A DNA stretch of 64,000 nt from contig JACPFQ010000004.1 of NCBI GenBank assembly GCA_016182875.1, positions 183,556-247,555 on the forward strand. The letters run 5' to 3'. Positions 1,749 through 60,980 of this stretch are shown piece after piece. Made by a program: the position numbers and the translations under genes. The DNA comes from Candidatus Doudnabacteria bacterium (lineage in GTDB: Bacteria > Patescibacteriota > Doudnabacteria > UBA920 > O2-02-FULL-48-8). How positions within the stretch are numbered: position 1 is the stretch's first letter; each line of letters opens with the position of its first letter. The notes beneath the pieces are model-generated. The model was not told where the DNA came from. It saw only the letters and a program-made list of their open reading frames with translations, and ran no database searches.

Positions 1749-2438
1749 TTGGATCAATTCACCAAGATGCAGGTTCGTCGCCAGTGTCTGGTGGAACCGG
1801 ATCCCACTGGCGAAGAAGTTCGCCAGCGTCCGATCCGGCACTTGGGAGAACTGTCTCGGGTGGCCAAACAGGAATGGGCGACGCGCCAGCAAGCGCCGAC
1901 CTACTTTTTGTACAAAGCCATCTCGGGGCAGCTCCCTGTGCGCGAGCGCGTGACGAGGGTGGAGCGCAAGCAGGCAATCTTCATCCTCGTCGATGGATCC
2001 GGCTCGATGTCGGGCAAGAAGCACTGGAAGGCAACTGGGGTCGTGATGAACCGGTTGAAGTCCGTGCTTGATGGAGACTCGGAAGTTTGGTTGTCGGTTT
2101 TTGACACCAAACTAACCAAAGTCTTCCATGCCACCAACCCGGTGGAGGCCCGCGAACTGATCAAGAAGTTCGCCGCGGGCAACTTCACCGGGGGTGGCAC
2201 TGACATCGCGGCCGCGACTAAGGCCGCGCATGACTATGTTGAGGACCAGATCCAAAAGGGTGCGGCATTATGGCGCCCGGAGGTTGTGGTCCTCACGGAT
2301 GAAGATACTTCCGTGGCCAGTCTCCGCAAGGAGATGATCCCGGGCACGCGTGTGCACGGGTTTGCCATGGAAGTGAAGAACCCCTCGCTCGTCGCGTTCG
2401 CGAAGAGCACGGGCGGGGTCGGCATGGATCAGTTTTAG
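1749..2438 (+). CDS. von Willebrand factor A (vWA) domain protein
   Basis: MIDAS motif ILVDGSGSMSG...TDG-like; TTG or downstream ATG start; partner of the upstream AAA+ ATPase. Confidence 0.7.
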   Translation: MDQFTKMQVRRQCLVEPDPTGEEVRQRPIRHLGELSRVAKQEWATRQQAPTYFLYKAISGQLPVRERVTRVERKQAIFILVDGSGSMSGKKHWKATGVVMNRLKSVLDGDSEVWLSVFDTKLTKVFHATNPVEARELIKKFAAGNFTGGGTDIAAATKAAHDYVEDQIQKGAALWRPEVVVLTDEDTSVASLRKEMIPGTRVHGFAMEVKNPSLVAFAKSTGGVGMDQF

Positions 2439-3518: not shown

Positions 3519-3627
3519 ATTTTTCCTTTCTGCCGCGGGTTAAATTCGGTAACTTTTATTTTAATCCCGGAAAATAATCCTGTCAAAAGTTGATAGTTGT
3601 TAGTTAATAGTTTATAATTTTTAAGCT

Positions 3628-3789
3628 ATGCCAGGTACTGAGAATTTGACCCGCGATTATGTTTTTATGAAAAAATCCTCAATCAAAACATATCGCGATA
3701 TAATTTTCGACCAGTCCATCACCGCCGCCGGCATGGGCTGCATGGCGGCCATGGACGCCGAAAAGTATCTGGAAATGGACCACGGCTAG
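3628..3789 (+). pseudogene. thioredoxin reductase C-terminal fragment (53 codons) carried on a repeated sequence
   Basis: Translates to ...YRDIIFDQSITAAGMGCMAAMDAEKYLEMDHG*, matching the conserved TrxB C-terminus (YRQAITAAGxGCxAAxDAEKYL); no upstream TrxB body; first ~87 bp repeated at 32429..32519. Confidence 0.5.
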
Positions 3790-7801: not shown

Positions 7802-7821
7802 AGAATTATTTTTTAATGATT

Positions 7822-7879
7822 AATTTTGAATTTTGATTCAAATTCGAATTTAAGAAATTAGAATATTCATTCGAAATTC
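7822..7879. repeat. 58-bp intergenic repeat, copy 1 (second copy 59266..59323)
   Basis: Identical aattttgaattttgattcaaattcgaatttaagaaattagaatattcattcgaaattc in both rpsF-ssb and der-LCP intergenic regions; contains two short palindromes. Confidence 0.6.
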
Positions 7880-11836: not shown

Positions 11837-11972
11837 GCGGTCAAGACCTATCACTGCTTCGCCAAGGCTTCGCAGTGCTAGCACTGCTTAGTTTCAACGG
11901 CGTAGTGCAAGCAGTGTCCTGCGTAGCTTTCTTGTTCTTCGTAGCTTCAGCGAAGAAGAAAGCGAAGCAGGG
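11837..11972. repeat. MITE-like palindromic element flanked by 9-bp direct repeat cttatatta (11828..11836 and 11973..11981)
   Basis: Shares cactgcttcgccaaggcttcgcagtgctagca...gcagtgtcctgcgtagcttt...gcgaagcagg with 60920..60980; internal inverted repeats. Confidence 0.55.
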
Positions 11973-11973
11973 C

Positions 11974-12990
11974 TTATATTAGGCCAATTTTTTCTTTGAC
12001 CTCTGCCAGAGTTTTGCCGGCGATTTTTTGAGCTTTTGAGGCACCTTCCGCCAGAATTTGTGTCAGTTGTTTTTTGTTAGCCATTATTTTTGTTTTTTTG
12101 TTTCGAAATTCCGCGAAGTGTTCGGCGATTTTTTTTGCGAGAGATTCCTTAAGTTCGTTGTATTTAGTAAAATCTTTTACTCGACTGGTGCCCCCGAATT
12201 GTTCGAGCAAGAATTTCAGGTTCTCGACTCCGGGCGAACCTTTTTTGGTATCAGTGGCAGTCACCGCTTTCTTGAGCTTGCGTAAAATTTCTTGGGGGGA
12301 GTCGTCCAGCATCAGCGCTTCATCGCCAGTCTTGCTCATTTTCTTGGTCGGGTCTGACAAGCTCATGATACGCAGCGGCTTTTGTAAGTAGGTCTTGGGT
12401 ATTGGAAATGTTTCGCCGAATCTGTTGTTAAATAATTTAGCTGTGTGTTTTGTTAAATCAATATGAGCTACTTGATCCTCTCCCACGGGTACCAGCGTTG
12501 GTTTGTAAAGTAATATATCGGCCGCCATTAAAGAGGGATAATTCAACAGTCCAGCATTAACATGAAATTTCATGTCGTTCATTGCATTAACTATAAATTG
12601 TCTTCTCGCCGTGACGTTATTTTCTATTTTATATTCTGACAATTTAGCTTTTTCAGTAAATTGAGGCATCCTTAATAATTCACCTAAGGATGTTAAGCAA
12701 TTAAAAATCCAGGCGAGTTCCGTGTGTTCCAAAACTTGGCTCTGCAAGAAGAAAACTGATTTATCTGGGTCAATGCCAGCAGCCAAATATTCCGCAGCGA
12801 CTTCCAAAGTATTTTGAGAAAGCTCTTTGGGTTCAAATGGCGTGGTTAAGGCATGGAGGTCGGCAATAAAAAAGAAGCACTCGTGGCCGCCTGAATTCTG
12901 CAGTTCCACAAATTGCTTCAACGCGCCCAGATAGTTGCCGACGTGAAGTTTGCCCGACGCTCGGATGCCTGAGAGAATTCGTTCTTTCAT
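11974..12990 (-). CDS. trpS: tryptophanyl-tRNA synthetase
   Basis: HVGNYLG (HIGH) and KMSKT (KMSKS) class I motifs. Confidence 0.9.
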   Translation of the reverse strand: MKERILSGIRASGKLHVGNYLGALKQFVELQNSGGHECFFFIADLHALTTPFEPKELSQNTLEVAAEYLAAGIDPDKSVFFLQSQVLEHTELAWIFNCLTSLGELLRMPQFTEKAKLSEYKIENNVTARRQFIVNAMNDMKFHVNAGLLNYPSLMAADILLYKPTLVPVGEDQVAHIDLTKHTAKLFNNRFGETFPIPKTYLQKPLRIMSLSDPTKKMSKTGDEALMLDDSPQEILRKLKKAVTATDTKKGSPGVENLKFLLEQFGGTSRVKDFTKYNELKESLAKKIAEHFAEFRNKKTKIMANKKQLTQILAEGASKAQKIAGKTLAEVKEKIGLI

Positions 12991-13020
12991 GAGAGTATTA
13001 TAGCTTAATTTTATAACCCC

Positions 13021-13099
13021 TCCCAGCCTCCCCTTATATTAAGGGGAGGAGTAATAAATTCCCCCTCTTAAAATAAGAGGGGGCTAGGGGGAGTTATTA
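13021..13099. repeat. C-rich/G-rich twin-hairpin element (cccagccYcccc...ccccctcttaaaataagaggggg...gggggagttat)
   Basis: Related copy 18972..19039 inside uvrC; similar short cccctc/gagggg hairpins at 53798..53822 and 54046..54070. Confidence 0.5.
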
Positions 13100-14845
13100 T
13101 ACCTCAATCACTACCGGTAATATCATGGGCCGGCGTTCGGTGCGCTGATAGAGGAATTCCCCGATTTGGTCGCGGACTTCGGAGCGGATGTAGGCCCAGC
13201 TGGGTTCAGCCTGCTTCATTTTGCTTTTAGTCTCCACGATTTTACGCACTTCGTGCTTGACTTCCTTGAGCAAATCCTCCGAGCCCTTCATATAAATGAA
13301 TCCGCGGGAGATAATGTCTGGCGGTTGGGCCAGCTTTCCGGTGGCGCGCTCCAAGGACATGATAATGACGAACATACCGTCCGTGCTCATAACCTGGCGG
13401 TCACGTAGCACGACCTCGCCGACGTCGCCCACACCCAAGCCGTCCACGAATACATAACCGGTTGGGATTTTGGCTTCTGACACTCGGACTTTGCCGGAAG
13501 GATCGAGTTCCAGCATCTGCCCGTTATCCAGGGTAAAGATGTTTTCTTCCGGCACTCCGACATTGCGGGCTAGATTGGCGTGGGCCACCAACATGTGGTA
13601 TTCGCCGTGAATGGGCATGAAATATTTCGGCCTGGTCAAGCCGATCATGAGTTTCAAGTCTTCCTGGTAAGCGTGGCCAGAAGTGTGGATGTCAAGAATC
13701 TTCATGTAAAGAACCTTGGCCCCTTGTCGGGCTAGGTTGGACAGGGTCGATGAAATCGACCGCTCGTTGCCGGGGATCGGAGAAGCGGAAACAATGACCG
13801 TATCGCCCTTTTTGATTTCAATGGTTTTATGCTCCCCGCGGGCAATGCGGGCCAAGGCCGAAAATTCTTCGCCTTGAGAGCCCGTAGTCAGAATAACGAC
13901 CTGGTTGTCCGGCAGTTTGCGGGCCTGCTCCATTTTGATAATCATGTTTTTGGCCGGCAGTTTGAGGTATCCCGTAGCCAGACAAATTTCAACGCTGTTG
14001 ACTAACGACCGGCCGGTGACGACCACTTTCCGGTTGCTTTTGTCGGCGGCGTCGAATAATTGCTGGACGCGGCCGATAAGCGTTGAGAAGGTTGTGAAGA
14101 TCACGCGGCCCTTGGCATCCATAAGCAGGCGGTCAATGGTTTCGCCCAGCGTTTTTTCGGACATCGAGTAGCCCGGCTTTTCGGCGTTAGTCGAATCAGA
14201 CATGAGCAAGGCCACGCCCTCGCCCCCGAATTTGGCCAATTTATCAAACTCCGTCGGCTTGCCGTCCACCGGCGTGTGGTCGAATTTCCAGTCCGTGGCA
14301 TATACAATCAGTCCGGCCGGGGAATTGATGGCCAGGCCGATGCTGTCCGGAATATTGTGGTTGAGCCGGAAGAATCTGATTCGGAAGTTGCCCAAGGTTA
14401 AAATATCGTCCTTATTGAGTTCGAAAATTTTAGAGCGACCGAGCAGATGAAATTCATCCAGGCGCTTCTTAATGAATTCACCGGTCAGCTTCATGGTATA
14501 GATGGGCGGGTCGCCGATTTTGGGCAGGATATAGGGAATGGCTCCGATATGGTCCAAGTGGCCGTGAGTGACAATCACTCCTTTAATGCGTTTTTTATTT
14601 TCTTCCAGATACTTGGTGTTGGGAATGATGTAGTCGATGCCAGGCATGGTTTCATCCGGGAAACCAAGTCCCATATCGATGACCAAAATATCGTCGCCGT
14701 ATTCCATGATGGTCATGTTTTCGCCGACTTCTTCGATTCCGCCCAAAGGAATGACCTTTAGTGTTTGTTTGGCGTCGAGTTTGACTGCTTGAGCCTGTTG
14801 AGCAGGACGGTTGAGGACCGCAGTTTGCGTTCTACGCATAATCAT
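13097..14845 (-). CDS. rnj: ribonuclease J (metallo-beta-lactamase/beta-CASP)
   Basis: HGHLDHIG motif, beta-CASP and C-terminal domain length. Confidence 0.9.
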   Translation of the reverse strand: MIMRRTQTAVLNRPAQQAQAVKLDAKQTLKVIPLGGIEEVGENMTIMEYGDDILVIDMGLGFPDETMPGIDYIIPNTKYLEENKKRIKGVIVTHGHLDHIGAIPYILPKIGDPPIYTMKLTGEFIKKRLDEFHLLGRSKIFELNKDDILTLGNFRIRFFRLNHNIPDSIGLAINSPAGLIVYATDWKFDHTPVDGKPTEFDKLAKFGGEGVALLMSDSTNAEKPGYSMSEKTLGETIDRLLMDAKGRVIFTTFSTLIGRVQQLFDAADKSNRKVVVTGRSLVNSVEICLATGYLKLPAKNMIIKMEQARKLPDNQVVILTTGSQGEEFSALARIARGEHKTIEIKKGDTVIVSASPIPGNERSISSTLSNLARQGAKVLYMKILDIHTSGHAYQEDLKLMIGLTRPKYFMPIHGEYHMLVAHANLARNVGVPEENIFTLDNGQMLELDPSGKVRVSEAKIPTGYVFVDGLGVGDVGEVVLRDRQVMSTDGMFVIIMSLERATGKLAQPPDIISRGFIYMKGSEDLLKEVKHEVRKIVETKSKMKQAEPSWAYIRSEVRDQIGEFLYQRTERRPMILPVVIEV

Positions 14846-17254: not shown

Positions 17255-19174
17255 TTAAAGACTGGCCTTTATTTTTTCAGCCGCGGAGTTCCCGACAACG
17301 CGCGCCAGCTCTCCCAATGTCGCTTTGCGAATTTGAGCGACAGACCCAAAGGTTGTCAGCAGCATTTTTTTCTTGGCCGGTCCAATGCCTGCGATTTCAT
17401 CCAAAGTCGAGAGGCGCGAGGCTTTGGATCTGAGCTTTCGGTGATAGGTGATGGCAAAACGATGAGCCTCGTCGCGAATGCGTTGCAGCAAAAAAAGCGC
17501 TATGGAGTTAGGTTGTAAGATTAAGGATTTAGGTTGACCAGGCACAAAGATTTCTTCGAGCTTTTTGGCCAGTCCGATGGTTGCTATATTCAGGTTATAC
17601 ATATGTATAACCTTTTTAGCGACAGAGAGCTGACCCTTACCGCCATCGATGAGGATCAAATCGGGAAGGGGCCAGGTCTTGTCATTGCGAGGAGCCGCAG
17701 GCGACGCGGCAATCTCTTTCTGAGATTGCTTCGCTTCGCTCGCAATGACAGAGCGCATAAATCTACGAGTAAGCATTTCCCTCATCATGGCATAATCATC
17801 CGGCGTGTCTTGGAACTTAATCTTAAACCGCCGATAGTCTTCCTTTTTCGGCCGCCCGAAATCAAACACAATCATTGACCCAACCGCGTTTTTCCCCTGG
17901 ATATTGGAAATATCATACGCTTCGATTCTTCCGGGCAGGGTTTTCAAATTGAGGACGCGCTGAAGTTCTTTGAGCGCGCTCATGAGTCTTGCCTCCTCCA
18001 AAAGCTTCTTGTCTGACTGAGATTCCAGATATTGCTTGGCGTTTTCCTGGCCAAGTTTAATAAGCTTAAGCTTTTGGCCTTTTTTAGGCACTGAGATAAA
18101 GGGCACCTTTTTGGTAGAGAACCCTGACAGTAAAGGTGCCCTTTGTTTTACCGGCGCCAAAATTTCTTTCGGCCAGCTCGAAGCCTCCAAATAATACCTC
18201 GGCAGAAATTCGCTAAGGATTTCGGCAATGCTTGCTCCTTTAGTATTTTCAAGAATAAAATTTTCCTGGCGGATGAGCTTGCCTTCGCGGACTACAAAAA
18301 GGTTCACAGCAGCCGCTGTGGCTTCTATGTAAACGCTGAACACGTCCTGGTCAATTTTTTTTGGATAGACAAGTTTCTGCCTTTCGAGCACGCGGTTAAG
18401 CGCATAAATTTGGTCGCGGACTCTTGCCGCTTTTTCAAACAATTTGGCTCGGGCGTAGCCCTGCATCCGCAATTTTAGGTGTTTAAGAATTTCTGACTGC
18501 CGGCCCTGCAGAAATTCCATGATTTTATTTATGTAGTTTTTTCGGTACTCTTCCAAGGAGATTTTGCCTATACATACTCCCGGGCATTTGCCGATATGGT
18601 AGTAAAAACACGGATGGTTGCTGATTTTTTTGTTGCCGCAGTAAGGGAAAATTTTTCTTAGTAGCCGTAGCGTGTCTTTGATGGAAGCGCTGGAAGTATA
18701 GGGTCCGAAGTAGCGCGCCGATTTATCGGCAGATTTTCTCTCATAGCTAATCGTGGGAATTTCGTCGGCCAAATTGATTTTGACGAATAGGTAATTTTTG
18801 TCATCCCGCAGTAAAATGTTGTACTTGGGTTTGAGCTGTTTGATGAAATTGTTTTCCAGAAGCAGGCTCTCCAGCTCATTGTCGGTAACGGTGTAATCGA
18901 AATCTTTGATCTGCGTGATCATGAGCTGGATTCTCGGCGATAACTCCCCCGCTTTGCCAAGGGCTTTGTCACCCAGCCCCCGGCGGGTAGTGAGGGAGGG
19001 AGTTTCTCTTAATTTAAGAGGGGGTTGGGGGGAGTTATAAAAATGCGAACGCACGCGATTCTTAAGATTAATCGCTTTGCCGACATAAAGAACCAGCCCC
19101 TTGGCGTCTTTGAATGTATAGACACCCGGCTTGCTGGGAAGTTCTTTGATTTTGTCAGCTAGAGCTTTTTGCAT
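17255..19174 (-). CDS. uvrC: excinuclease ABC subunit C
   Basis: GIY-YIG (PGVYxFKD...LYVGKA), UvrC homology, RNase H-like/HhH C-terminus; start set at Met 19174 (the upstream 15 codons lie in a repeat). Confidence 0.9.
   Translation of the reverse strand: MQKALADKIKELPSKPGVYTFKDAKGLVLYVGKAINLKNRVRSHFYNSPQPPLKLRETPSLTTRRGLGDKALGKAGELSPRIQLMITQIKDFDYTVTDNELESLLLENNFIKQLKPKYNILLRDDKNYLFVKINLADEIPTISYERKSADKSARYFGPYTSSASIKDTLRLLRKIFPYCGNKKISNHPCFYYHIGKCPGVCIGKISLEEYRKNYINKIMEFLQGRQSEILKHLKLRMQGYARAKLFEKAARVRDQIYALNRVLERQKLVYPKKIDQDVFSVYIEATAAAVNLFVVREGKLIRQENFILENTKGASIAEILSEFLPRYYLEASSWPKEILAPVKQRAPLLSGFSTKKVPFISVPKKGQKLKLIKLGQENAKQYLESQSDKKLLEEARLMSALKELQRVLNLKTLPGRIEAYDISNIQGKNAVGSMIVFDFGRPKKEDYRRFKIKFQDTPDDYAMMREMLTRRFMRSVIASEAKQSQKEIAASPAAPRNDKTWPLPDLILIDGGKGQLSVAKKVIHMYNLNIATIGLAKKLEEIFVPGQPKSLILQPNSIALFLLQRIRDEAHRFAITYHRKLRSKASRLSTLDEIAGIGPAKKKMLLTTFGSVAQIRKATLGELARVVGNSAAEKIKASL
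17682..17750. repeat. ~69-bp palindromic element (GCGAGCGAAGCGAAGCAATCTC core) lying in frame inside uvrC
   Basis: tcattgcgag...gcaatctctttctgagattgc...ctcgcaatga; encodes ...SVIASEAKQSQKEIAAS...; same core at 30043, 57501, 28989, 32062. Confidence 0.55.
18972..19039. repeat. C-rich hairpin element (family of 13021..13099) lying in frame in the uvrC GIY-YIG region
   Basis: cccagcccccgg...ctcttaatttaagaggggg ttggggggagttat; adds ~25-30 residues (SPQPPLKLRETPSLTTRRGLGDKALGKAGE) between RVRSHF and IQLMITQI. Confidence 0.5.
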
Positions 19175-19179
19175 GGAGA

Positions 19180-19240
19180 TAGATTGCTTCGTCGGCTTCG
19201 CCTCCTCGCAAATGCGCATTCGCGAGCGGACGAAGTCCGC
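19180..19240. repeat. ~60-bp repeat, copy A (inverted copy at 23337..23400)
   Basis: tagattgcttcgtcggcttcgcctcctcgcaaatg(g)cgcat... present in opposite orientation 4.1 kb away. Confidence 0.55.
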
Positions 19241-19359
19241 GTGGCGATCTAATCATTGACGCAACTGATTATATCATAGTAAACTTAGCTGTTCTGCGGA
19301 ATGGTTCCGCGGCACCTTACCAGGGCCTGTATTGGCTCAAAGAACCGGAGGGTTCAGGT

Positions 19360-23333: not shown

Positions 23334-23336
23334 TAG

Positions 23337-23400
23337 ACTGCTTCGCTAATCGCTCGCAGATGCGCCATTTGCGAGGAGGCGAAGCCGACGAAGCAATCTA
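23337..23400. repeat. ~60-bp repeat, inverted copy of 19180..19240
   Basis: Reverse complement of gtgtttagattgcttcgtcggcttcgcctcctcgcaaatggcgcat... Confidence 0.55.
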
Positions 23401-23544
23401 AACACATGCAAAACATTTTTTCTAAACTTAGCCATCATACCAACCCTTTCCCGCTTGGAGAGGTTGGTTAGGTATGCTTTAAGAAAAATTTTTCTTCCCA
23501 ACCCCTGCAAGCCTGCCGGGGTTTTTAATTAAGCTTGATATTTT

Positions 23545-28943: not shown

Positions 28944-28988
28944 AAATTATGAGCAGACTGCCAATTAATATTGTTGGATTACAGTAAT

Positions 28989-29046
28989 TGTCATCCTGAG
29001 CGAAGCGAAGGATCTCATGAGATTCTTCACTGCGTTCAGAATGACA
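28989..29046. repeat. palindromic element (tgtcatcctgagcgaagcgaaggatctc / gagattc...gcgttcagaatgaca)
   Basis: Variant of the GCGAAGCGAAG palindromic family; supplies the spurious N-terminal codons of the grpE ORF. Confidence 0.55.
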
Positions 29047-29550
29047 AACACGAATATGTCAGACGAGAATAATCAAACCCAGGAAGCTACAGTTGAGGAA
29101 CTGCAGGCTAAGAACGAAGAATTTTTGAATAACTGGAAGCGCGTAGCGGCGGACTTGGAAAACTTCCGCAAACGCCGCGAAGCGGAGAATAAGGAATTGC
29201 TGGAATTCGCCAAGGAAATGGCGGCAATCAAGCTTCTGCCTTCCCTGCAAAGTCTGGAACAGGTCTTGAAGTTCGCGCCGAATGATGAGAAGTACAAAGG
29301 CTGGCTCGACGGCCTCAAAGCTACGATCTTGCAGCTCGAGAAGGCCATGGAAGAGCTGGGCTTGAAAAAAATCAACACGGTCGGCGAGAATTTCGACCAC
29401 GAACTGCACGAAGCCGTGGAAGAAGCGGAAGGAGAAGACGGTAAAGTTTTAAAAGAATTGCAACCGGGTTTTATGCTGCATAACAAAGTAATCATCCCGG
29501 CCAAGGTCGTGGTCGGAAAAAAGTTAAGCGATTCGAATATAGCGAATTGA
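29041..29550 (+). CDS. grpE: nucleotide exchange factor GrpE
   Basis: GrpE coiled-coil plus C-terminal beta domain similarity; start uncertain (29041 or 29056). Confidence 0.85.
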   Translation: MTNTNMSDENNQTQEATVEELQAKNEEFLNNWKRVAADLENFRKRREAENKELLEFAKEMAAIKLLPSLQSLEQVLKFAPNDEKYKGWLDGLKATILQLEKAMEELGLKKINTVGENFDHELHEAVEEAEGEDGKVLKELQPGFMLHNKVIIPAKVVVGKKLSDSNIAN

Positions 29551-29624
29551 CATGCGAAAGATGCGAATCGATTCGTGTCATTCGAATGTCCAATTCGTGG
29601 CTTCGTATCGCTGAAGGAGTAATT

Positions 29625-30042: not shown

Positions 30043-30131
30043 TGTCTTTGCGAGCGAAGCGAAGCAATCTCATCCCGAGAAAAGAGATTGCTTCGTCGAC
30101 CGGCAATTCGCCGGTCTCCTCGCAAAGACAG
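30043..30131. repeat. 89-bp nested palindromic element in the dnaK 5' region
   Basis: tgtctttgcgag|cgaagcgaagcaatctc...gagattgcttcg|tcgaccggcaattcgccggtc|tcctcgcaaagacag, three nested stems. Confidence 0.6.
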
Positions 30132-32053: not shown

Positions 32054-32061
32054 CACGAAAG

Positions 32062-32119
32062 TGTCATCCTGAACGCAGTGAAGGATCCCATGAGATTCAC
32101 AGCGAAGCTCAGAATGACA
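32062..32119. repeat. palindromic element (tgtcatcctgaacgcagtgaaggatccc / gagattcacagcgaagctcagaatgaca)
   Basis: Same family as 28989..29046; just 3' of dnaK. Confidence 0.55.
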
Positions 32120-32427: not shown

Positions 32428-32579
32428 TATGCCAGGTACTGAAATTTTGACCCGCGATTATGTTTTTCAGGTAAAGAACCCTCAATCAAAAACATATCGC
32501 GATATTAATTTTCGACCAGGCATAAGAACAGGCCTTAAGTGGTCGAATAATTAAGTCAAATTTCTAGTACCTGGTATGC
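32427..32579. mobile_element. MITE-like element with ~25-bp terminal inverted repeats; internal copy of the trxB-3'-like repeat
   Basis: Left arm atatgccaggtactgaaattttgacc (32427..32452), right arm gtcaaatttctagtacctggtatgc (32555..32579); interior 32429..32519 ~90% identical to 3628..3714. Confidence 0.5.
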
Positions 32580-55453: not shown

Positions 55454-56113
55454 ATGCCAAGTCATGGAACCCCCCTCTCCGCAACGCATTTGGCGCCGTT
55501 TGTTAGTACGGCGACCAAAGCCCTGATCCTGGTCGCGAATGATCTGGGACAGGGAGTCCAGGAAAGCTGGGCGAACCGGAGCGAAGAAATGCAGTCGCTC
55601 TTCCGCCAGGCGTTTCTGCCGCCGCAACAGACGGGCCAGCCGCTCATGGCGCGCTATATCGTGCCGATCCCGAACATCGCGGTGAACTACGACCGCAAGT
55701 TCGTGGACGCGGCAATGGCCGGTGGTCCGCAGACCCCGTCCAACTACGATGTCCTCAAAGTCGGCGACCTCTACGTCGCCCGGCACAAGGGCATCGTCCG
55801 GCGCAACATCACGATCGTGAACTTCGGGCTGGACGTCAGCTCGGAACAGGCGCAGGAGTTCGGGCAGGCGCACAAACTCGGTCGCACGCTCGATCCATGG
55901 GAGTGCTTCTCCATCGGCGAGCACCGGCCCATGCTCAATCGCGAGCTCGGCTTCGACTACATGGCCGTTGTCTCGTTGGAGAAGTGCGAGTTCGGCGGTG
56001 AGTCGCGAGTCTGCAGCTGCTGGTGGGACGAGCGGGAGCGCGAGGCCGCTCTCAACTGGTTCACCGACGGCTGGCACGTCCGCTGCTGGTTCGGTTTCGT
56101 CCGCGAGTCCTAG
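55454..56113 (+). CDS. DGR variable (target) protein; C-terminal ~38 residues encoded by VR
   Basis: C-terminus ...CEFGGESRVCSCWWDEREREAALNWFTDGWHVRCWFGFVRES lies in the VR; GC-rich (~60%). Confidence 0.8.
   Translation: MPSHGTPLSATHLAPFVSTATKALILVANDLGQGVQESWANRSEEMQSLFRQAFLPPQQTGQPLMARYIVPIPNIAVNYDRKFVDAAMAGGPQTPSNYDVLKVGDLYVARHKGIVRRNITIVNFGLDVSSEQAQEFGQAHKLGRTLDPWECFSIGEHRPMLNRELGFDYMAVVSLEKCEFGGESRVCSCWWDEREREAALNWFTDGWHVRCWFGFVRES
55989..56104 (+). repeat. DGR variable repeat (VR), 116 bp
   Basis: Gap-free alignment to TR 56439..56554 with 17 mismatches, every one at a TR adenine. Confidence 0.85.
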
Positions 56114-56438: not shown

Positions 56439-56554
56439 AATTCGGCGGTAAGTCGCAAGTCTGCAACTGCTGGTGGAACGAGCAGAAGCGCAAGGCCAAT
56501 CTCAACTGGTTCACCAACGACTGGAACGACAACTACTGGTTCGGTTTCGTCCGC
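56439..56554 (+). repeat. DGR template repeat (TR), 116 bp
   Basis: See VR; contains 30 A of which 17 differ in VR (13 A>G, 3 A>C, 1 A>T). Confidence 0.85.
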
Positions 56555-56568
56555 TACTTTCTTCGGCT

Positions 56569-56889
56569 TTATCCCGCCTTTGCGGCGGGATTTTCTTTGC
56601 TGGCTTGTCTATACCAGCCGCCAAGCATTTTGCCGATTTCATTCAGCGGTTCAGAAAGAGCGATGTATTTTTTGGTATCCAAGGCTTTAATCTCCCAGAG
56701 AATCTGCAAGAATAGTTTGAGCAAATCGAGCTTGATTATGGTTTTTTGCAAATATGCAGGTTTCTGCGGCTTCGATGAGTATCCAGCGATAAAACTTAAT
56801 TCAATTGTGCTTAGAAACAATATGTCAATTTTTGCGCCAAGAGTATATTTCGAAGATTTTAAAATGTGCGGCATGAAGCCATACCACAT
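56569..56889 (-). CDS. avd: Avd-like four-helix-bundle protein (23S rRNA IVS-protein family), antisense to the rest of the DGR
   Basis: C-terminal ...LNEIGKMLGGW... and FIAGYSS match the IVS-protein/Avd consensus (..NIAEG..R / ..EEIxKMLNGL..). Confidence 0.55.
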   Translation of the reverse strand: MWYGFMPHILKSSKYTLGAKIDILFLSTIELSFIAGYSSKPQKPAYLQKTIIKLDLLKLFLQILWEIKALDTKKYIALSEPLNEIGKMLGGWYRQASKENPAAKAG

Positions 56890-56966
56890 TTTGTAAGCAG
56901 AAATAAGATGTTGCAGAATCGGAAGATTCCGTTGGGGGGGGGGGCGTTAACAGAGGCAAAATTCAG

Positions 56967-58043
56967 TTGGCTCATGGTTTTGACGAGATTATTTCTGTTG
57001 AGAATCTGCTCTTGGCTTGGCAAGAGTTTATCCGCGGCAAGAGGAATAAGCCGGATGTCCAACTCTTTGCTCACGCTTTGATTGATAATATTTTACAGCT
57101 TCACAATGATTTAGCCAACAAGACTTATCGGCACGGCGGATATTACCAGTTTAAGATTTCCGATCCCAAGCCGCGGGATATCAGCAAAGCCTCGGTTCGC
57201 GATAGGCTTTTGCATCATGCGATATATCGAATCCTGTATCCATTCTTTGACCGGACATTTATCGCTGATTCTTTTTCCTGCCGGGTTGATAAAGGCACGC
57301 ACAAGGCGGTCAACCGATTGCTGGCAATGTTCAGAAAAGCAAGCAAGAACAATACCCGCACATGCTGGGTTCTCAAATGCGACATCAGGAAGTTCTTTGC
57401 CAGCATAGATCATGATGTTTTGAAAAATATTTTAGCTAGACATGTTCCTGACATAGATATGCTTTGGCTTCTAGGGAATATTATTGATAGCTTTGGGTCA
57501 GATTGCTTCGTCGGCCGCCAGACTAAACCCCGGCCAGAAAACCGGCCTCCTCGCAATGACATTAAATCTGTCTTTGCGAGCGAAGCGAAGCAATCTCATA
57601 ACCAGGGTCTTCCCTTAGGCAACCTAACCTCCCAGCTCTTCGTCAACATATATATGAACGAGTTTGACCAGTTTGTGAAGCATAAACTCAAGGTTAAGCA
57701 TTATATACGCTATGCCGATGATTTTATAATTCTATCTCCAAGCGAAGAGGAACTCACTGCAATACTGTCACGTATTGCAGTACTCCTCAAGCAAGAGCTT
57801 AAACTGCGGCTTCATCCACATAAAGTCACTCTTAAAACCTTTGCTTCAGGCATTGATTTTTTAGGGTGGGTTAATTTTCCCCATCATAGAGTGCTACGCA
57901 CAGCCACGAAAAAACGGATGCTTAAGCGTATCCGTGTAAATTCAACCAATGAAACCTTGCAATCTTATTTAGGACTTTTAAAGCACGGGAATACTTTTCA
58001 AAAAATTTTCGCCAGCCCGCAGCAATGGCCGCGGGGAAGTTGA
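56967..58043 (+). CDS. DGR-type reverse transcriptase
   Basis: RT motifs: KCDIRKFFASIDH (2), GLPLGNLTSQLFVNIYMNEFD (4, DGR-specific LGNLTSQ), YIRYADDFIIL (5, YADD), GIDFLGW (7); TTG start after AGAGG RBS. Confidence 0.85.
   Translation: MAHGFDEIISVENLLLAWQEFIRGKRNKPDVQLFAHALIDNILQLHNDLANKTYRHGGYYQFKISDPKPRDISKASVRDRLLHHAIYRILYPFFDRTFIADSFSCRVDKGTHKAVNRLLAMFRKASKNNTRTCWVLKCDIRKFFASIDHDVLKNILARHVPDIDMLWLLGNIIDSFGSDCFVGRQTKPRPENRPPRNDIKSVFASEAKQSHNQGLPLGNLTSQLFVNIYMNEFDQFVKHKLKVKHYIRYADDFIILSPSEEELTAILSRIAVLLKQELKLRLHPHKVTLKTFASGIDFLGWVNFPHHRVLRTATKKRMLKRIRVNSTNETLQSYLGLLKHGNTFQKIFASPQQWPRGS
57501..57597. repeat. ~97-bp palindromic element (GCGAAGCGAAG family) lying in frame within the RT gene between motifs 3 and 4
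   Basis: gattgcttcgtcggccgcc...ccggcctcctcgcaatgaca...tgtctttgcgagcgaagcgaagcaatctc; encodes ...GSDCFVGRQTKPRPENRPPRNDIKSVFASEAKQSH... Confidence 0.5.
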
Positions 58044-59247
58044 CCGTAAGCTTGAAGGTTGGCGGTTTGGTTCCTGTCTGCTTTAAATTATAGACTTTTG
58101 GCTCCCGTTGGTCGTCCATTTTGCCCGGCGGATGTTCTGAAAGAATATCATCCAAAAATTTATCGAGGCTTTCAACTCCAATTTCACGTGAGGTGCTTTG
58201 GAAGCTTTTGGCAGCCAAATCCAAAATCAGCTCGAGATTGAGTTTGGTCTTGGCCGAAGCAAAGACCACAGGCAAAAACCATGCCTGAGGGAAGTAATCA
58301 GGCAAGATATTTAAAAGTTTGTCCCGCTCGCCCTCCCCCACCAGGTCAATTTTATTGAGAACGATCACAGCAGGCTTGTTGTGTTCGGCAATTTGCTGGG
58401 CCACGACTTGGTCAGCGACCGTAATTTCGCCGGCAGCGTCCAGGACGAACAGCGCGACGTCGGTCTGCGAAAGAACTCGCAGGGACTGGAAGGCGCTGGC
58501 CGTTTCCACGTCCGAGTCCTGCTTCCATTTTTTTTTGATTCCGGCCGTATCGATCAGCGTGAATTTATTTTGCTCATAGTCAAATGGAATGTCCACTGAA
58601 GATCGGGTCGTGCCGGCCTTGTCATGGACCAGCAGGCGCTCCTGTTTGAGCAGGGCGTTGATGAGGGAGGACTTGCCGACGTTGGGTTTTCCGACGAAAG
58701 CAATTTTAATCCGTTCTTCCTCTTCTAACTGGCGCACCGGAAATTTATCATTTAGTATTTTAACTATTTCATCCAATAAGTCGCCGATCCCGGCGCCATT
58801 GATGGAGGAGATTAAAAACGGCTTGTTGAGCCCCAGTTTTAAATATTCAAAAGCCAAGGTTTCGGTTTTGACGTTTCTCGTTTCAATTTTATTTACGGCC
58901 AAGACCACAGGTTTTTTTTGCTGCGAAAGCCTGCCGGCCACGGTAAAGTCTTTACTTCCGGGAGAAGTTCTGCCGTCAACCATAAGCAGAATCAGGTCAG
59001 CTTCTTCTTGAGCGATCTCGGTTTGTTTTTGGACATCCCGCTCCAGATCCGAGCCGGGTCTGGCGACGCCCGCAGTGTCGATAAGATAAAAACTCCGTCC
59101 GCTCCAGGAAGTTAGGCCGAAATGCCGGTCTCGGGTGGTGCCCGCTTCCGGATAGATTAGAGCCTTTCGGACTCCCAGGATTTTATTAAAAAATGTCGAC
59201 TTGCCGACGTTGGGAAGGCCAATTATGGCAACGAGCGGAGTATTCAT
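57922..59247 (-). CDS. der: ribosome-associated GTPase Der/EngA
   Basis: Two tandem GTPase domains (GLPNVGKST, GKPNVGKSS) plus KH-like C-terminus; 3' end overlaps RT 3' end by ~120 bp. Confidence 0.9.
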   Translation of the reverse strand: MNTPLVAIIGLPNVGKSTFFNKILGVRKALIYPEAGTTRDRHFGLTSWSGRSFYLIDTAGVARPGSDLERDVQKQTEIAQEEADLILLMVDGRTSPGSKDFTVAGRLSQQKKPVVLAVNKIETRNVKTETLAFEYLKLGLNKPFLISSINGAGIGDLLDEIVKILNDKFPVRQLEEEERIKIAFVGKPNVGKSSLINALLKQERLLVHDKAGTTRSSVDIPFDYEQNKFTLIDTAGIKKKWKQDSDVETASAFQSLRVLSQTDVALFVLDAAGEITVADQVVAQQIAEHNKPAVIVLNKIDLVGEGERDKLLNILPDYFPQAWFLPVVFASAKTKLNLELILDLAAKSFQSTSREIGVESLDKFLDDILSEHPPGKMDDQREPKVYNLKQTGTKPPTFKLTVNFPAAIAAGWRKFFEKYSRALKVLNKIARFHWLNLHGYA

Positions 59248-59265
59248 TAGAAATTTAGAATTAAG

Positions 59266-59323
59266 AATTTTGAATTTTGATTCAAATTCGAATTTAAGAA
59301 ATTAGAATATTCATTCGAAATTC
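59266..59323. repeat. 58-bp intergenic repeat, copy 2 (copy 1 at 7822..7879)
   Basis: Identical sequence. Confidence 0.6.
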
Positions 59324-59344: not shown

Positions 59345-60700
59345 CTACAATGCATCCTTCCCCAGAATAATCACAAAATCTGCGGTTGAATTGGTATAGG
59401 GAACGTCGGCGATGTTGAAATTAAAACTATTTTTAAGATAGTCGGCCATGTTGGGAAATTTTCCGCCTGAATTATCATATAATATGGTCCGCTCGTAAGG
59501 GACCCGGCTTTTGAATGTGGTAACTTTCGTGTTGGGGACTACTTTTAGAAGCTGGCCGAGGCCATCGAGGGCATAGGCGTTGCCCGTAGAATTTTGAATT
59601 TCTATGGTCGCGTTTTCTTTTTTCAGCTTGGCAGCCGTAAAAATATTTTCCAGATGTTCATGTACGTCCTGGTAGGTAATGCCTTCGCATGGCTGAATAA
59701 CGTAAGCCCTGGCGGTATAATCCTCTATGATTCCCTGGCAGATTAAGTTTCCATCAGGCTCGAGGGAAAAGGAATATATTTTTTCCGATTTTATGCCTTT
59801 TCCGATTTCGGCCAGCCGCTTCATTTCGTACGGCTCGAGGTTGGTCCGAAAGTGATCTGTAAAGTCGTTAAGAAGGTTGCTGATTTTTTTAAGGTCAATC
59901 AGATTTAGCTTGATGACTTTTTGAGCAAAGGCCGAAATGATTTTTTTCTGCCGTTCACTGCGGGCAAAATCCGAGCCTTCGCCGCTGCTCCCGTGCCGGG
60001 AGCGCGCAAATTGCAGCGCCCGCTTCCCATCCATGTGGTCAAAGCCTTCTTTGAAGCTTACTTCCGGCAGATATCCGTATGTTTCGTCAGGGTAGGTGGA
60101 ATCAGTAAAGCTCCGCTCGACGTAGACATCTAAGCCCCCGACATGATCAACCGCTTTGACAAAGCCTTTGAAGTCCACGACCGCAAAATATGGAATCTCC
60201 CAGCCGGTCAATTTTTCAACGGCTTTTATGGTTGCCTCTCCGCCCGTGCCGCTTCCAGCCTGTTCCGCAAAGGCGTAAGCAGAGTTAATTTTCCGAAAGC
60301 CCGCCGAAGGAAGGCCGACTATGAAGTCCCTCGGGATTGAGAGCAACACTGCTTCTTGGCTTTCAGGGTCAATTTGAGCCGCAATAATCGTGTCAGTCAG
60401 CAGCGGCCCGTCGTGCCCCTCTCCTCCCATCCCCAGGAGCAGAATGTTGACGCGGCCCTCATCTTCGCCGGCCAGTTGCTTATCGCCTCCTATCAGAAGT
60501 TTTCCAAACCGCACGAAAGGATTTTCTTGCCTGCTGAAGATCTGGTTCGTCTTTGACAGCAATTTGGTGGTACCCCAGGTCGCCGCGACAAACAAAATTA
60601 AAAGAAGCAGTAAAAAGAATCGCAGTTTCCTGCGCGGGTGTTTTATTTGAGGAGGCAAACGCCGCACTCCTGGGGTTGAAATTGCGTCAAAAGACCTCAT
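59345..60700 (-). CDS. LytR-CpsA-Psr (LCP) family cell-envelope phosphotransferase
   Basis: N-terminal TM, LCP core (NILLLGMGG...DTIIAAQIDP...LSIPRD). Confidence 0.8.
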   Translation of the reverse strand: MRSFDAISTPGVRRLPPQIKHPRRKLRFFLLLLLILFVAATWGTTKLLSKTNQIFSRQENPFVRFGKLLIGGDKQLAGEDEGRVNILLLGMGGEGHDGPLLTDTIIAAQIDPESQEAVLLSIPRDFIVGLPSAGFRKINSAYAFAEQAGSGTGGEATIKAVEKLTGWEIPYFAVVDFKGFVKAVDHVGGLDVYVERSFTDSTYPDETYGYLPEVSFKEGFDHMDGKRALQFARSRHGSSGEGSDFARSERQKKIISAFAQKVIKLNLIDLKKISNLLNDFTDHFRTNLEPYEMKRLAEIGKGIKSEKIYSFSLEPDGNLICQGIIEDYTARAYVIQPCEGITYQDVHEHLENIFTAAKLKKENATIEIQNSTGNAYALDGLGQLLKVVPNTKVTTFKSRVPYERTILYDNSGGKFPNMADYLKNSFNFNIADVPYTNSTADFVIILGKDAL

Positions 60701-60844: not shown

Positions 60845-60921
60845 GGTCACTTAGCTCAGCTGGTTAGAGCGCGTCGTTCACATCGACGAGGCCGCTGGTT
60901 CGAGTCCAGCAGTGACCACCA
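60845..60921 (+). tRNA. tRNA-Val (anticodon CAC), CCA encoded
   Basis: Cloverleaf; anticodon loop TTCACAT; T-arm GGTTCGAGTCC. Confidence 0.9.
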
Positions 60922-60980
60922 CTGCTTCGCCAAGGCTTCGCAGTGCTAGCAGTGTCCTGCGTAGCTTTACGCGAAGCAGG
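60920..60980. repeat. short copy of the MITE-like element of 11837..11972, abutting the tRNA-Val 3' end
   Basis: cactgcttcgccaaggcttcgcagtgctagcagtgtcctgcgtagctttacgcgaagcagg begins within the tRNA CCA. Confidence 0.5.

Follow-up and report, generated by a model that had tools for sequence, protein, structure and literature searches.

The question raised by this locus is whether a reverse transcriptase (RT) can continue to function with a piece of dispersed palindromic DNA translated between two of its conserved motifs. The stretch analyzed (here called the window) comprises 64,000 nucleotides of Candidatus Doudnabacteria bacterium, a member of the Candidate Phyla Radiation (CPR), and contains a diversity-generating retroelement (DGR) whose RT gene carries a nested palindrome of 97 nt in frame. 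The original prediction left two possibilities standing, that the RT tolerates a palindrome-encoded loop or that the element has inactivated the DGR. Purifying selection and adenine-only differences between the template region (TR) and variable region (VR) of the DGR favor the first of these and disfavor the second. The insert is very probably a translated passenger in a surface loop of an enzyme that, like the DGR as a whole, goes on working, the present-day activity of the RT and the neutrality of the insert being what we infer.

The palindrome lies between motif 3 (KFFASIDH) and motif 4 (GLPLGNLTSQ), and the RT open reading frame (ORF) translates it without a stop as ...SFGSDCFVGRQTKPRPENRPPRNDIKSVFASEAKQSHNQGLPLGNLTSQ..., as had been claimed from the sequence initially. 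Outer arms (AGATTGCTTCG and CGAAGCAATCT) surround an inner hairpin (CTCGCAATGAC-N9-GTCTTTGCGAG, 57550-57580), and the whole consists of two inverted units separated by a 7-nt spacer: unit- (57500-57561), which reads GATTGCTTCGTCG, an internal stem-loop and CTCCTCGCAATGAC, and unit+ (57569-57597), which reads TGTCTTTGCGAGCGAAGCGAAGCAATCTC. Folding of the segment confirmed a strong hairpin both as DNA (-24.2 kcal/mol, z score of -4.88, with 0 of 200 shuffled sequences folding equally well) and as RNA (-42.4 kcal/mol, z score of -5.58). The proposed kinship with an intergenic palindrome in the hsp20/dnaK spacer also holds, since bases 57569-57599 are identical at 31 of 31 positions to 30043-73; they are, in addition, 94% complementary to 17718-52. 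Relative to the intergenic copy at 30043, the RT copy is circularly permuted, its units standing in the order unit-/unit+ instead of unit+/unit-. A scan of the whole window against Rfam at gathering thresholds returned three tRNAs only and left the element unmatched. Literature matches to the DNA words and typical peptides of the element were chance ones only, and nothing relevant was found in the literature on CPR bacteria and palindromic repeats in coding genes.

Alignment with other RTs indicates that the segment is an insertion. The spacer between motifs 3 and 4 is 64 amino acids (aa) long in the window RT, compared with 29 to 35 aa in 63 of 113 homologous RTs, 39 to 44 aa in 17 and 45 to 92 aa in 33, so that 50 of the 113 exceed the 29- to 35-aa baseline. 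In bRT, the RT of the Bordetella phage DGR (8ub7), ~20 residues separate the flanking aligned blocks, versus ~55 in the window RT, and the RTs of the close relatives P0008, P0010 and P0013 are devoid of any insert. A conserved segment of equal length was looked for among the homologous RTs and was not found. An origin as an ancestral RT subdomain, of the kind represented by RT3a in group II intron RTs, was ruled out, since most homologues, like bRT, lack the segment and its sequence can be matched nucleotide by nucleotide to intergenic repeats. Relatives from other samples (L081, L082 and L083/L084, with 66 to 76% RT identity) have inserts of this repeat family that are identically oriented and placed at the same codon.

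The loop that received the element is, on the evidence of sequence comparison, a recurrent landing site for many unrelated hairpin repeats. While the facts first reported for the RT element stand, this hotspot was overlooked, as were the in-frame copies in housekeeping genes described below. With one genome per species, 80 related-RT loci were sampled; 75 of these allowed the two motifs to be paired, giving 76 spacers with that of the window. All 76 are a multiple of three in length and keep both motifs in the same frame, which leaves intron-like removal at the RNA level unsupported. Spacers longer than the baseline of 87 to 108 nt, at 114 to 225 nt, were seen at 21 of the 75 loci outside the window; every expanded locus is intact and in frame, and 16 of the 21 inserts fold with a z score of -2 or below. 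Because intact genes are overrepresented in the sample, the uniform preservation of frame, while strong evidence for frame selection, is not free of bias. The 21 inserts represent many families (GTCATTCCCGCG...GGGAATCC; GTCATCCTGAGCG...GGATCC; AT-rich hairpins encoding NSAIAE or PIYAMAEM) that are unrelated between RTs in sequence, length and encoded peptide, and no single origin event can account for them, so the loop must have been colonized many times. In a neighbor-joining tree, insert families are scattered among close relatives, although the tree is too star-like for independent gains to be counted.

Such a hotspot could also reflect insertion-site preference, with a DNA feature of the RT gene attracting hairpins, rather than selection for copies in a permissive loop. 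The junctions, which in every case fall 2 to 4 codons after a conserved SF and 2 to 4 codons before GLPLG, are consistent with this, as is the tree, which suggests that close relatives have gained, lost and replaced inserts at this one site. The flanking codons, however, differ by locus (GGGTCA, AAATCA and GAAGTA), and no target-site duplication or common target motif was found at the RT, uvrC or intergenic copies. Unrelated hairpin families would, moreover, all need the same preference, and other proteins have variable-loop hotspots of their own. Site preference is therefore regarded as an unlikely explanation.

The surrounding locus (Table 1) is, to judge from its sequence, a complete DGR consisting of a target gene, TR, bAvd-like gene and RT gene. 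It presents the features by which DGRs are recognized, namely, an RT of the DGR clade, an adenine-only TR/VR pair with the VR at the 3' end of the target gene and an Avd-type protein. All 16 mismatches in the 114-nt TR/VR pair replace an adenine of the TR with another base in the VR and affect codon position 1 or 2, and no differences were found at non-adenine template positions across the 114 nt. The RT ORF is uninterrupted, with both the DGR-diagnostic SQ motif (in motif 4) and YADD present, and its top PDB match by sequence is bRT (E = 1e-42), which it resembles in fold, motifs, Avd partner, TR/VR arrangement and adenine mutagenesis (bioRxiv 10.1101/2023.10.23.563531). It differs in that the helix after motif 3 of bRT runs straight into motif 4, whereas the window RT has ~35 extra residues there, and in that avd has the opposite orientation to the target gene, TR and RT. 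Inverted avd is also found in the relatives L081 (633-980), L082 (2896-3159) and L084 (7649-7978), so that in this CPR DGR clade the RNA stretch 3' of the TR would be antisense avd. The target gene has no match in Pfam, and the RT is 100% identical to a Candidatus Doudnabacteria protein at NCBI.

A run of 11 G residues (56934-56944) lies just 5' of the TTG start of the RT gene. Many RT homologues have a conserved (V)GGG in the upstream reading frame at this position, which points to conservation of the run at the DNA level; the run may contribute to the structure of the DGR RNA or be prone to slippage. In the window RT, GGC replaces the canonical Met codon of MKIQL....

Several lines of evidence suggest that the RT still works. 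In an AlphaFold2 model built with 33 homologues, the polymerase body is confident, and the predicted local distance difference test (pLDDT) score falls below 50 only at residues 181 to 210 (the insert, a coil) and 349 to 358; the best fold match of the model in the PDB is again bRT (E = 2.8e-21, TM score of 0.73 to 0.79). The RT cores of the window and L081, which share the insert, differ at a proportion of synonymous sites (pS) of 0.69, corresponding to a synonymous divergence (dS) of ~1.85, i.e., near saturation, and the nonsynonymous divergence (dN) is 0.16. The resulting dN/dS of ~0.09 indicates that insert-bearing genes are under strong purifying selection. In six other insert-bearing DGRs, the TR/VR mismatches are again mostly adenine derived (L081, 17 of 18; L083, 14 of 14; L002, 14 of 15; L015, 17 of 18; L071, 17 of 17; L018, 16 of 19). 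Together with the intact motifs, the disordered loop of the model and the adenine-only TR/VR pair of the window, these data make it most likely that the RT tolerates the insert.

Several observations weigh against this interpretation, and some of them would suit the alternative that the element inactivated the RT, leaving a DGR that died recently and has a VR so far free of ordinary mutations. Just three residues separate the insert from the downstream catalytic motif 4, where template and incoming deoxynucleoside triphosphate are contacted, and the RT lacks its native C-terminal tail at the junction with the neighboring gene der, the replacement being modeled with a pLDDT below 50. For some time after inactivation, a DGR still shows VR/TR differences confined to adenines (PMC3521204), and by analogy they might be expected here as well if inactivation were very recent. 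Recent death is, however, difficult to reconcile with the same insert at the same site in relatives at near-saturated synonymous divergence and a dN/dS of ~0.09, with the 50 of 113 homologues above the baseline spacer and the intact, in-frame state of every expanded species locus, or with the mismatches of the six other insert-bearing DGRs, and inactivation appears highly improbable. The remaining observations concern the neutrality and origin of the insert. The window and L081 inserts share 80% nucleotide identity, compared with 74% for the RT cores, yet synonymous sites are near saturation; the repeat boxes thus appear to evolve ~8 times more slowly than synonymous or neutral sites, which a purely neutral passenger does not predict. 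Slow evolution of the boxes would require gene conversion from other copies, constraint at the DNA or RNA level or repeated reinsertion; gene conversion would fit the identity of one arm to an intergenic copy. The patchy occurrence of insert families among close relatives in the neighbor-joining tree is compatible with insertion-site preference. Finally, tblastn detected no gene like those of the Ssn nucleases, which partner related hairpins (see below), in the 64-kb window.

Slow box evolution could alternatively mean that the insert is kept for a function, as a hairpin throttling RT expression (through an RNase III site or a translational or transcriptional pause), as an Ssn-type nuclease site or as a peptide loop that modifies the polymerase. 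Besides the ~8-fold-greater conservation of the boxes relative to synonymous sites between the window and L081, the strong RNA hairpin (-42 kcal/mol) and the presence of a hairpin at this single site in ~30 to 45% of related RTs would fit a function, and the concentration of intragenic repetitive extragenic palindromes (REPs) in DNA synthesis and repair genes was judged unlikely to be fortuitous by Di Nocera et al. (PMC3733652). The inserts of different RTs are, however, unrelated in sequence, length and peptide, and many close relatives (P0008, P0010 and P0013) do without one. Identical boxes in intergenic copies indicate that conservation is a property of the repeat family, and UvrC and PrmC show a similar pattern. 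Retention for a function is held to be unlikely. A narrower form of the idea, to which still less credence is given, is that hairpins are kept in the RT loop and in UvrC as cis-acting DNA or RNA structures or Ssn-type nuclease sites that tune mutagenic and repair polymerases; single-stranded TGTCATTGCGAGCGAAGCGAAGCAATCTC may be a putative Ssn-type nuclease target. If true, cis-acting hairpins would explain both the conservation of the boxes beyond that of synonymous sites and the intragenic REPs of DNA synthesis and repair genes.

Tolerated in-frame copies are not confined to the RT. The window holds five copies of the family, all of them inverted dimers and two of them in frame in genes, and two copies of a related family (Table 1). 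The site of the uvrC copy is a variable-insert loop among 86 Doudnabacteria-like UvrC proteins, with varied repeat-like peptides in 19, and a second UvrC loop holds such peptides in 11 of the 86. In the relative L083, the PrmC methyltransferase gene (12392-13351, minus strand) contains two in-frame hairpin-repeat inserts (FVFASGAKQSHSRVEIASSLRSSQRQ and IARSEATRQSFIRSPRDLRSLAMV). The copies in uvrC and prmC suggest a genome-wide habit and not a peculiarity of the RT.

Table 1. Positions of the features discussed, in the window unless a metagenome locus is named
Feature	Position	Strand	Remarks
uvrC	17255-19174	-	Hosts in-frame same-family dimer
Same-family element in uvrC	17681..17750		In frame: ...SVIASEAKQSQKEIAASPAAPRNDK...; DNA fold -25.9 kcal/mol, z score -4.85
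Same-family element	19167..19251		Directly 5' of uvrC start codon
Same-family element	23336..23413		Intergenic
Related (sister) family, TGTCATCCTGAGCGAAGCGAAGGATCTC...	28986..29047		Between hrcA and grpE
Same-family element	30043..30131		Intergenic, hsp20/dnaK; copy cited in the original prediction
Related (sister) family, second copy	32059-32119		After dnaK
DGR target gene	55454..56113	+	VR 55991-56104 at 3' end; 114-nt repeat shared with TR
TR	56441..56554	+	86% identical to VR
bAvd-like accessory gene	56569..56889	-	Pfam PF22296 bAvd, E 5e-11
DGR RT	56967..58043	+	358 aa, TTG start; RVT_1 E 8e-25; GLPLGNLTSQ, YADD
Palindromic element in RT	57500..57596		97 nt; nested palindrome, in frame; ~33 extra residues (RT ~178-211)
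der (EngA GTPase)	57922..59247	-	Pfam MMR_HSR1 x2 + KH_dom-like
GIY-YIG (Ssn-type) gene cassettes	L200 397-777; L187 ~2000-2400; L202 ~1800-2200		Between inverted hairpin units

A second, lineage-specific in-frame insert in uvrC (~18950-19033, residues 48 to 74 in the GIY-YIG domain, PQPPLKLRETPSLTTRRGLGDKALGK) has outer arms AACTCCCCC and GGGGGAGTT; its fold is not significant (z score of -1.28), and it is unique to the window protein among the 86. In the hrcA-grpE-hsp20-dnaK cluster, repeats stand at three gene boundaries (28986-29047, 30043-30131 and 32059-32119), and a separate, weaker palindrome occupies the grpE/hsp20 junction (29524-29615). The longest grpE ORF begins inside a repeat, and the start of grpE has therefore probably been miscalled.

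The units of the family have the form TGTC-ATTGC...GCAAT-CTC and are arranged as head-to-head dimers. They open with TGTCTTTGCGAG or TGTCATTGCGAG, i.e., with the TGTC tag, which is allowed besides CCTC as a variant of the CGTC tag of the CGTC REP superfamily (PMC3733652), and their outer frame, GTCATT...AATCT, is common to the CGTC/TGTC superfamily. This superfamily (Di Nocera, De Gregorio and Rocco, 2013) includes dRS3 of Neisseria, and the Rickettsia palindromic elements (RPE) RPE-4 and RPE-6 have been classed as CGTC REPs; most members are head-to-head dimers, and intragenic dimers encode 20 to 30 aa, notably in DNA synthesis and repair genes such as those for Uvr proteins and polymerases (PMC3733652). 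The window repeats resemble these REPs in their TGTC tag, AT-first stem, head-to-head dimers and intragenic dimers in repair and synthesis genes such as uvrC and the RT gene. They differ in occurring in CPR bacteria, outside the phyla surveyed, and in unit structure: the stem begins with AT but comprises only 5 bp (ATTGC/GCAAT) around an interior of 12 to 45 nt, followed by a CTC tail, whereas published CGTC families have an 8- to 9-bp stem starting A-T, T-A, a 4- to 5-nt loop and a 3-nt CCA-like tail (PMC3733652).

At least 120 metagenome contigs (loci L085-L204), with G+C contents of 0.36 to 0.69, contain exact copies of the 24-nt core TTGCGAGCGNAGCGAAGCAATCTC, indicating that the family reaches far beyond CPR bacteria; this spread is unusually wide for an exact noncoding word. 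In L187, L200 and L202, and partly in L132, an inverted pair of units with this core encloses a single-domain GIY-YIG gene of ~90 aa (PF01541, E = 1e-13 to 1e-17 in the first three), and in L187 and L200 the stop codon of this gene is the TGA of TGAGATTGC. Small GIY-YIG (Ssn-type) genes placed exactly between inverted hairpin units were also seen in L207, L208 and L211. One such protein is 45% identical to that of a Neisseria gonorrhoeae locus with NTS repeats downstream. Homologous genes with GTCAT...ATCC hairpins on both sides are present in Rhizobium, Sinorhizobium, Azospirillum, Novosphingobium and Aeromonas; for the N. gonorrhoeae homologue, hairpin units were seen downstream only. The Azospirillum cassette is flanked by sufB and sufC. 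The association of GIY-YIG genes with hairpins was dropped as a new finding, having been published in 2025 for the Ssn family, site-specific single-strand DNA nucleases flanked by Ssn-related motifs (SRM) (PMC11893778).

The Ssn/SRM system (NTS/SRM, SsnA; Nat Commun 2025, PMC11893778) thus shares with the present family inverted GTCAT...ATCY pairs flanking a ~90-aa GIY-YIG gene, but that study deals with intergenic clusters and natural transformation, whereas the copies described here are coding and in frame. No window unit matches the degenerate SRM pattern HGTCWYN(0-2)YYVSBRHN(0-5)WNVSBRGN(0-2)RNCYNB (PMC11893778), which the NTS, Rhizobium and Azospirillum units, as positive controls, do match. 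The shared tag, AT-first stem, frame and dimers, together with the odd stem and the failure to match the SRM pattern, suggest a divergent family of the superfamily, and the window repeat is best called, on sequence resemblance, a divergent relative of the CGTC-REP/SRM superfamily.

Other mobile palindromes fit less well. REPINs, which are mobilized by RAYT (PMC3116915), are likewise nonautonomous long hairpins of two inverted REP-like units with a short spacer, but they are almost exclusively extragenic and bear a GTAG tag in place of the TGTC tag of the window units; no RAYT gene was seen, although none was specifically searched for. The element is palindromic over its whole length, and the RT, uvrC and intergenic copies are not bordered by any consistent direct repeat, features that do not correspond to a miniature inverted-repeat transposable element. 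The closest parallel in behavior is with RPE, also a dispersed palindromic family with in-frame copies in unrelated genes, presumably located in surface loops of host proteins that are apparently functional (review PMC10969869). In-frame copies with products that seem functional are found here in RT, uvrC and, in L083, prmC, function being judged from dN/dS and TR/VR data. The differences from RPE are the host lineage (Candidatus Doudnabacteria), the sequence family (compared by description, with only the CGTC/TGTC tag in common), the DGR RT as host gene and the repeated use of one loop by unrelated families across species.

Taken together, a dispersed, nonautonomous palindromic repeat would have landed in or been copied into the RT gene, in the short loop joining the helix after motif 3 to motif 4, the mode of movement being surmised from the distribution of copies. 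Because the length of the element keeps the frame and there is no stop in the frame used, it is translated, and the ~33 added residues would form a floppy surface loop that is tolerated as a passenger. The loop is presumably one of few places in the compact RT that accept extra residues. In these small genomes, abundant hairpin repeats, very short intergenic spacers and a permissive loop could thus lead to independent colonization of this loop by different families in related RTs. The same may have happened in tolerant loops of the housekeeping proteins UvrC and PrmC, where copies that are in frame would survive. In its full-length form, an element of the superfamily has a gene for a ~90-aa GIY-YIG single-strand nuclease between two hairpins.

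The 3' end of the RT gene was also described initially as overlapping the convergent der gene by ~120 bp. At the ORF level this is correct (122 nt, 57922-58043), but the description as an ordinary tail-to-tail overlap does not hold, as the C terminus of Der has been lost. The family-homologous parts of the two genes overlap by only ~15 to 20 nt and meet within ACTTTTCAAAAAATTTTCG (~57991-58010). Alignment of Der to Bacillus subtilis EngA ends at residue 419 of 441, and alignments to nearly all of the 150 best homologues end at ~419 to 423. The closest homologues (63 and 58% identical) end ...FEKQFRFKFGLEGTPIQIKY or continue ...FEKQFRFKFGLEGTPIQIKYIKRI, whereas the window Der reads ...FEKYSRALKVLNKIARFHWLNLHGYA; the last ~20 conserved residues, the QFRxxFGxEGTPIxIxY segment of the KH-like domain, are missing. 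The 3' part of der (57922-57990) instead encodes a 22-residue tail without Der homology that is the antisense of the conserved RT C terminus SYLGLLKHGNTF. The RT tail that follows HGNTFQKI, in turn, is encoded antisense to the conserved Der segment FPAAIAAGWRKFFE and is modeled at low confidence. In relatives, the DGR stands beside other genes, and a tblastn search for der in RT-related loci found no conserved DGR-der synteny. As read from these alignments, the overlap is a truncation junction produced by deletion or insertion, or possibly by misassembly, and not an evolved overlap.

An assembly chimera in this metagenome-assembled genome (MAG) would account for the overlap and possibly for the truncation of Der. 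The cluster to which the RT protein belongs has one member only, from one contig of one assembly, the junction falls in the A/T-rich, low-complexity stretch ACTTTTCAAAAAATTTTCG, and a highly conserved terminal motif is absent from Der while the DGRs of relatives occupy other genomic contexts. The microhomology shared at the junction is, however, only 4 to 6 nt, which is not long enough to misdirect a k-mer assembler. Both ORFs remain open across the junction, and the contig is 327 kb long; a chimera is accordingly held to be improbable.

Other repeats in the window include a 70-nt A/T-rich direct repeat (7810-7879 and 59254-59323, 93% identical), the second copy of which lies just 5' of der and before a LytR-like gene (59345-60700). 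At 3627-3707 and again at 32428-32511, 28.8 kb away, there is a pair of neighboring conserved blocks (95 and 91% identical) that reads TATGCCAGGTACTGA...TTGACCCGCGATTATGTTTTT and then AAAACATATCGCGATAT and may represent a shared promoter or operator. A 35-nt hairpin-like repeat is 97% identical between 11852-11916 and 60920-60954, the latter copy directly following a tRNA gene (60845-60918).

That selfish hairpin repeats can be translated as extra loops is already known from Rickettsia RPE and intragenic REP dimers. New here are the host gene, a DGR RT, the host lineage, CPR bacteria, and the use of one loop of an RT family as a natural hotspot. For users of this MAG, der is likely to be damaged, or else misassembled, and for annotators, insert-bearing RTs should not be called pseudogenes. 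The findings extend the concept of selfish DNA inside proteins to the CPR and link it to the hairpin superfamily that partners Ssn single-strand nucleases. For DGR biology, the surface loop before motif 4 appears to accept 10 to 60 extra residues naturally, with ~30 to 45% of the sampled CPR RTs carrying an insert, and the same loop may be a useful place in which to introduce engineered tags or fusion partners in DGR RTs.

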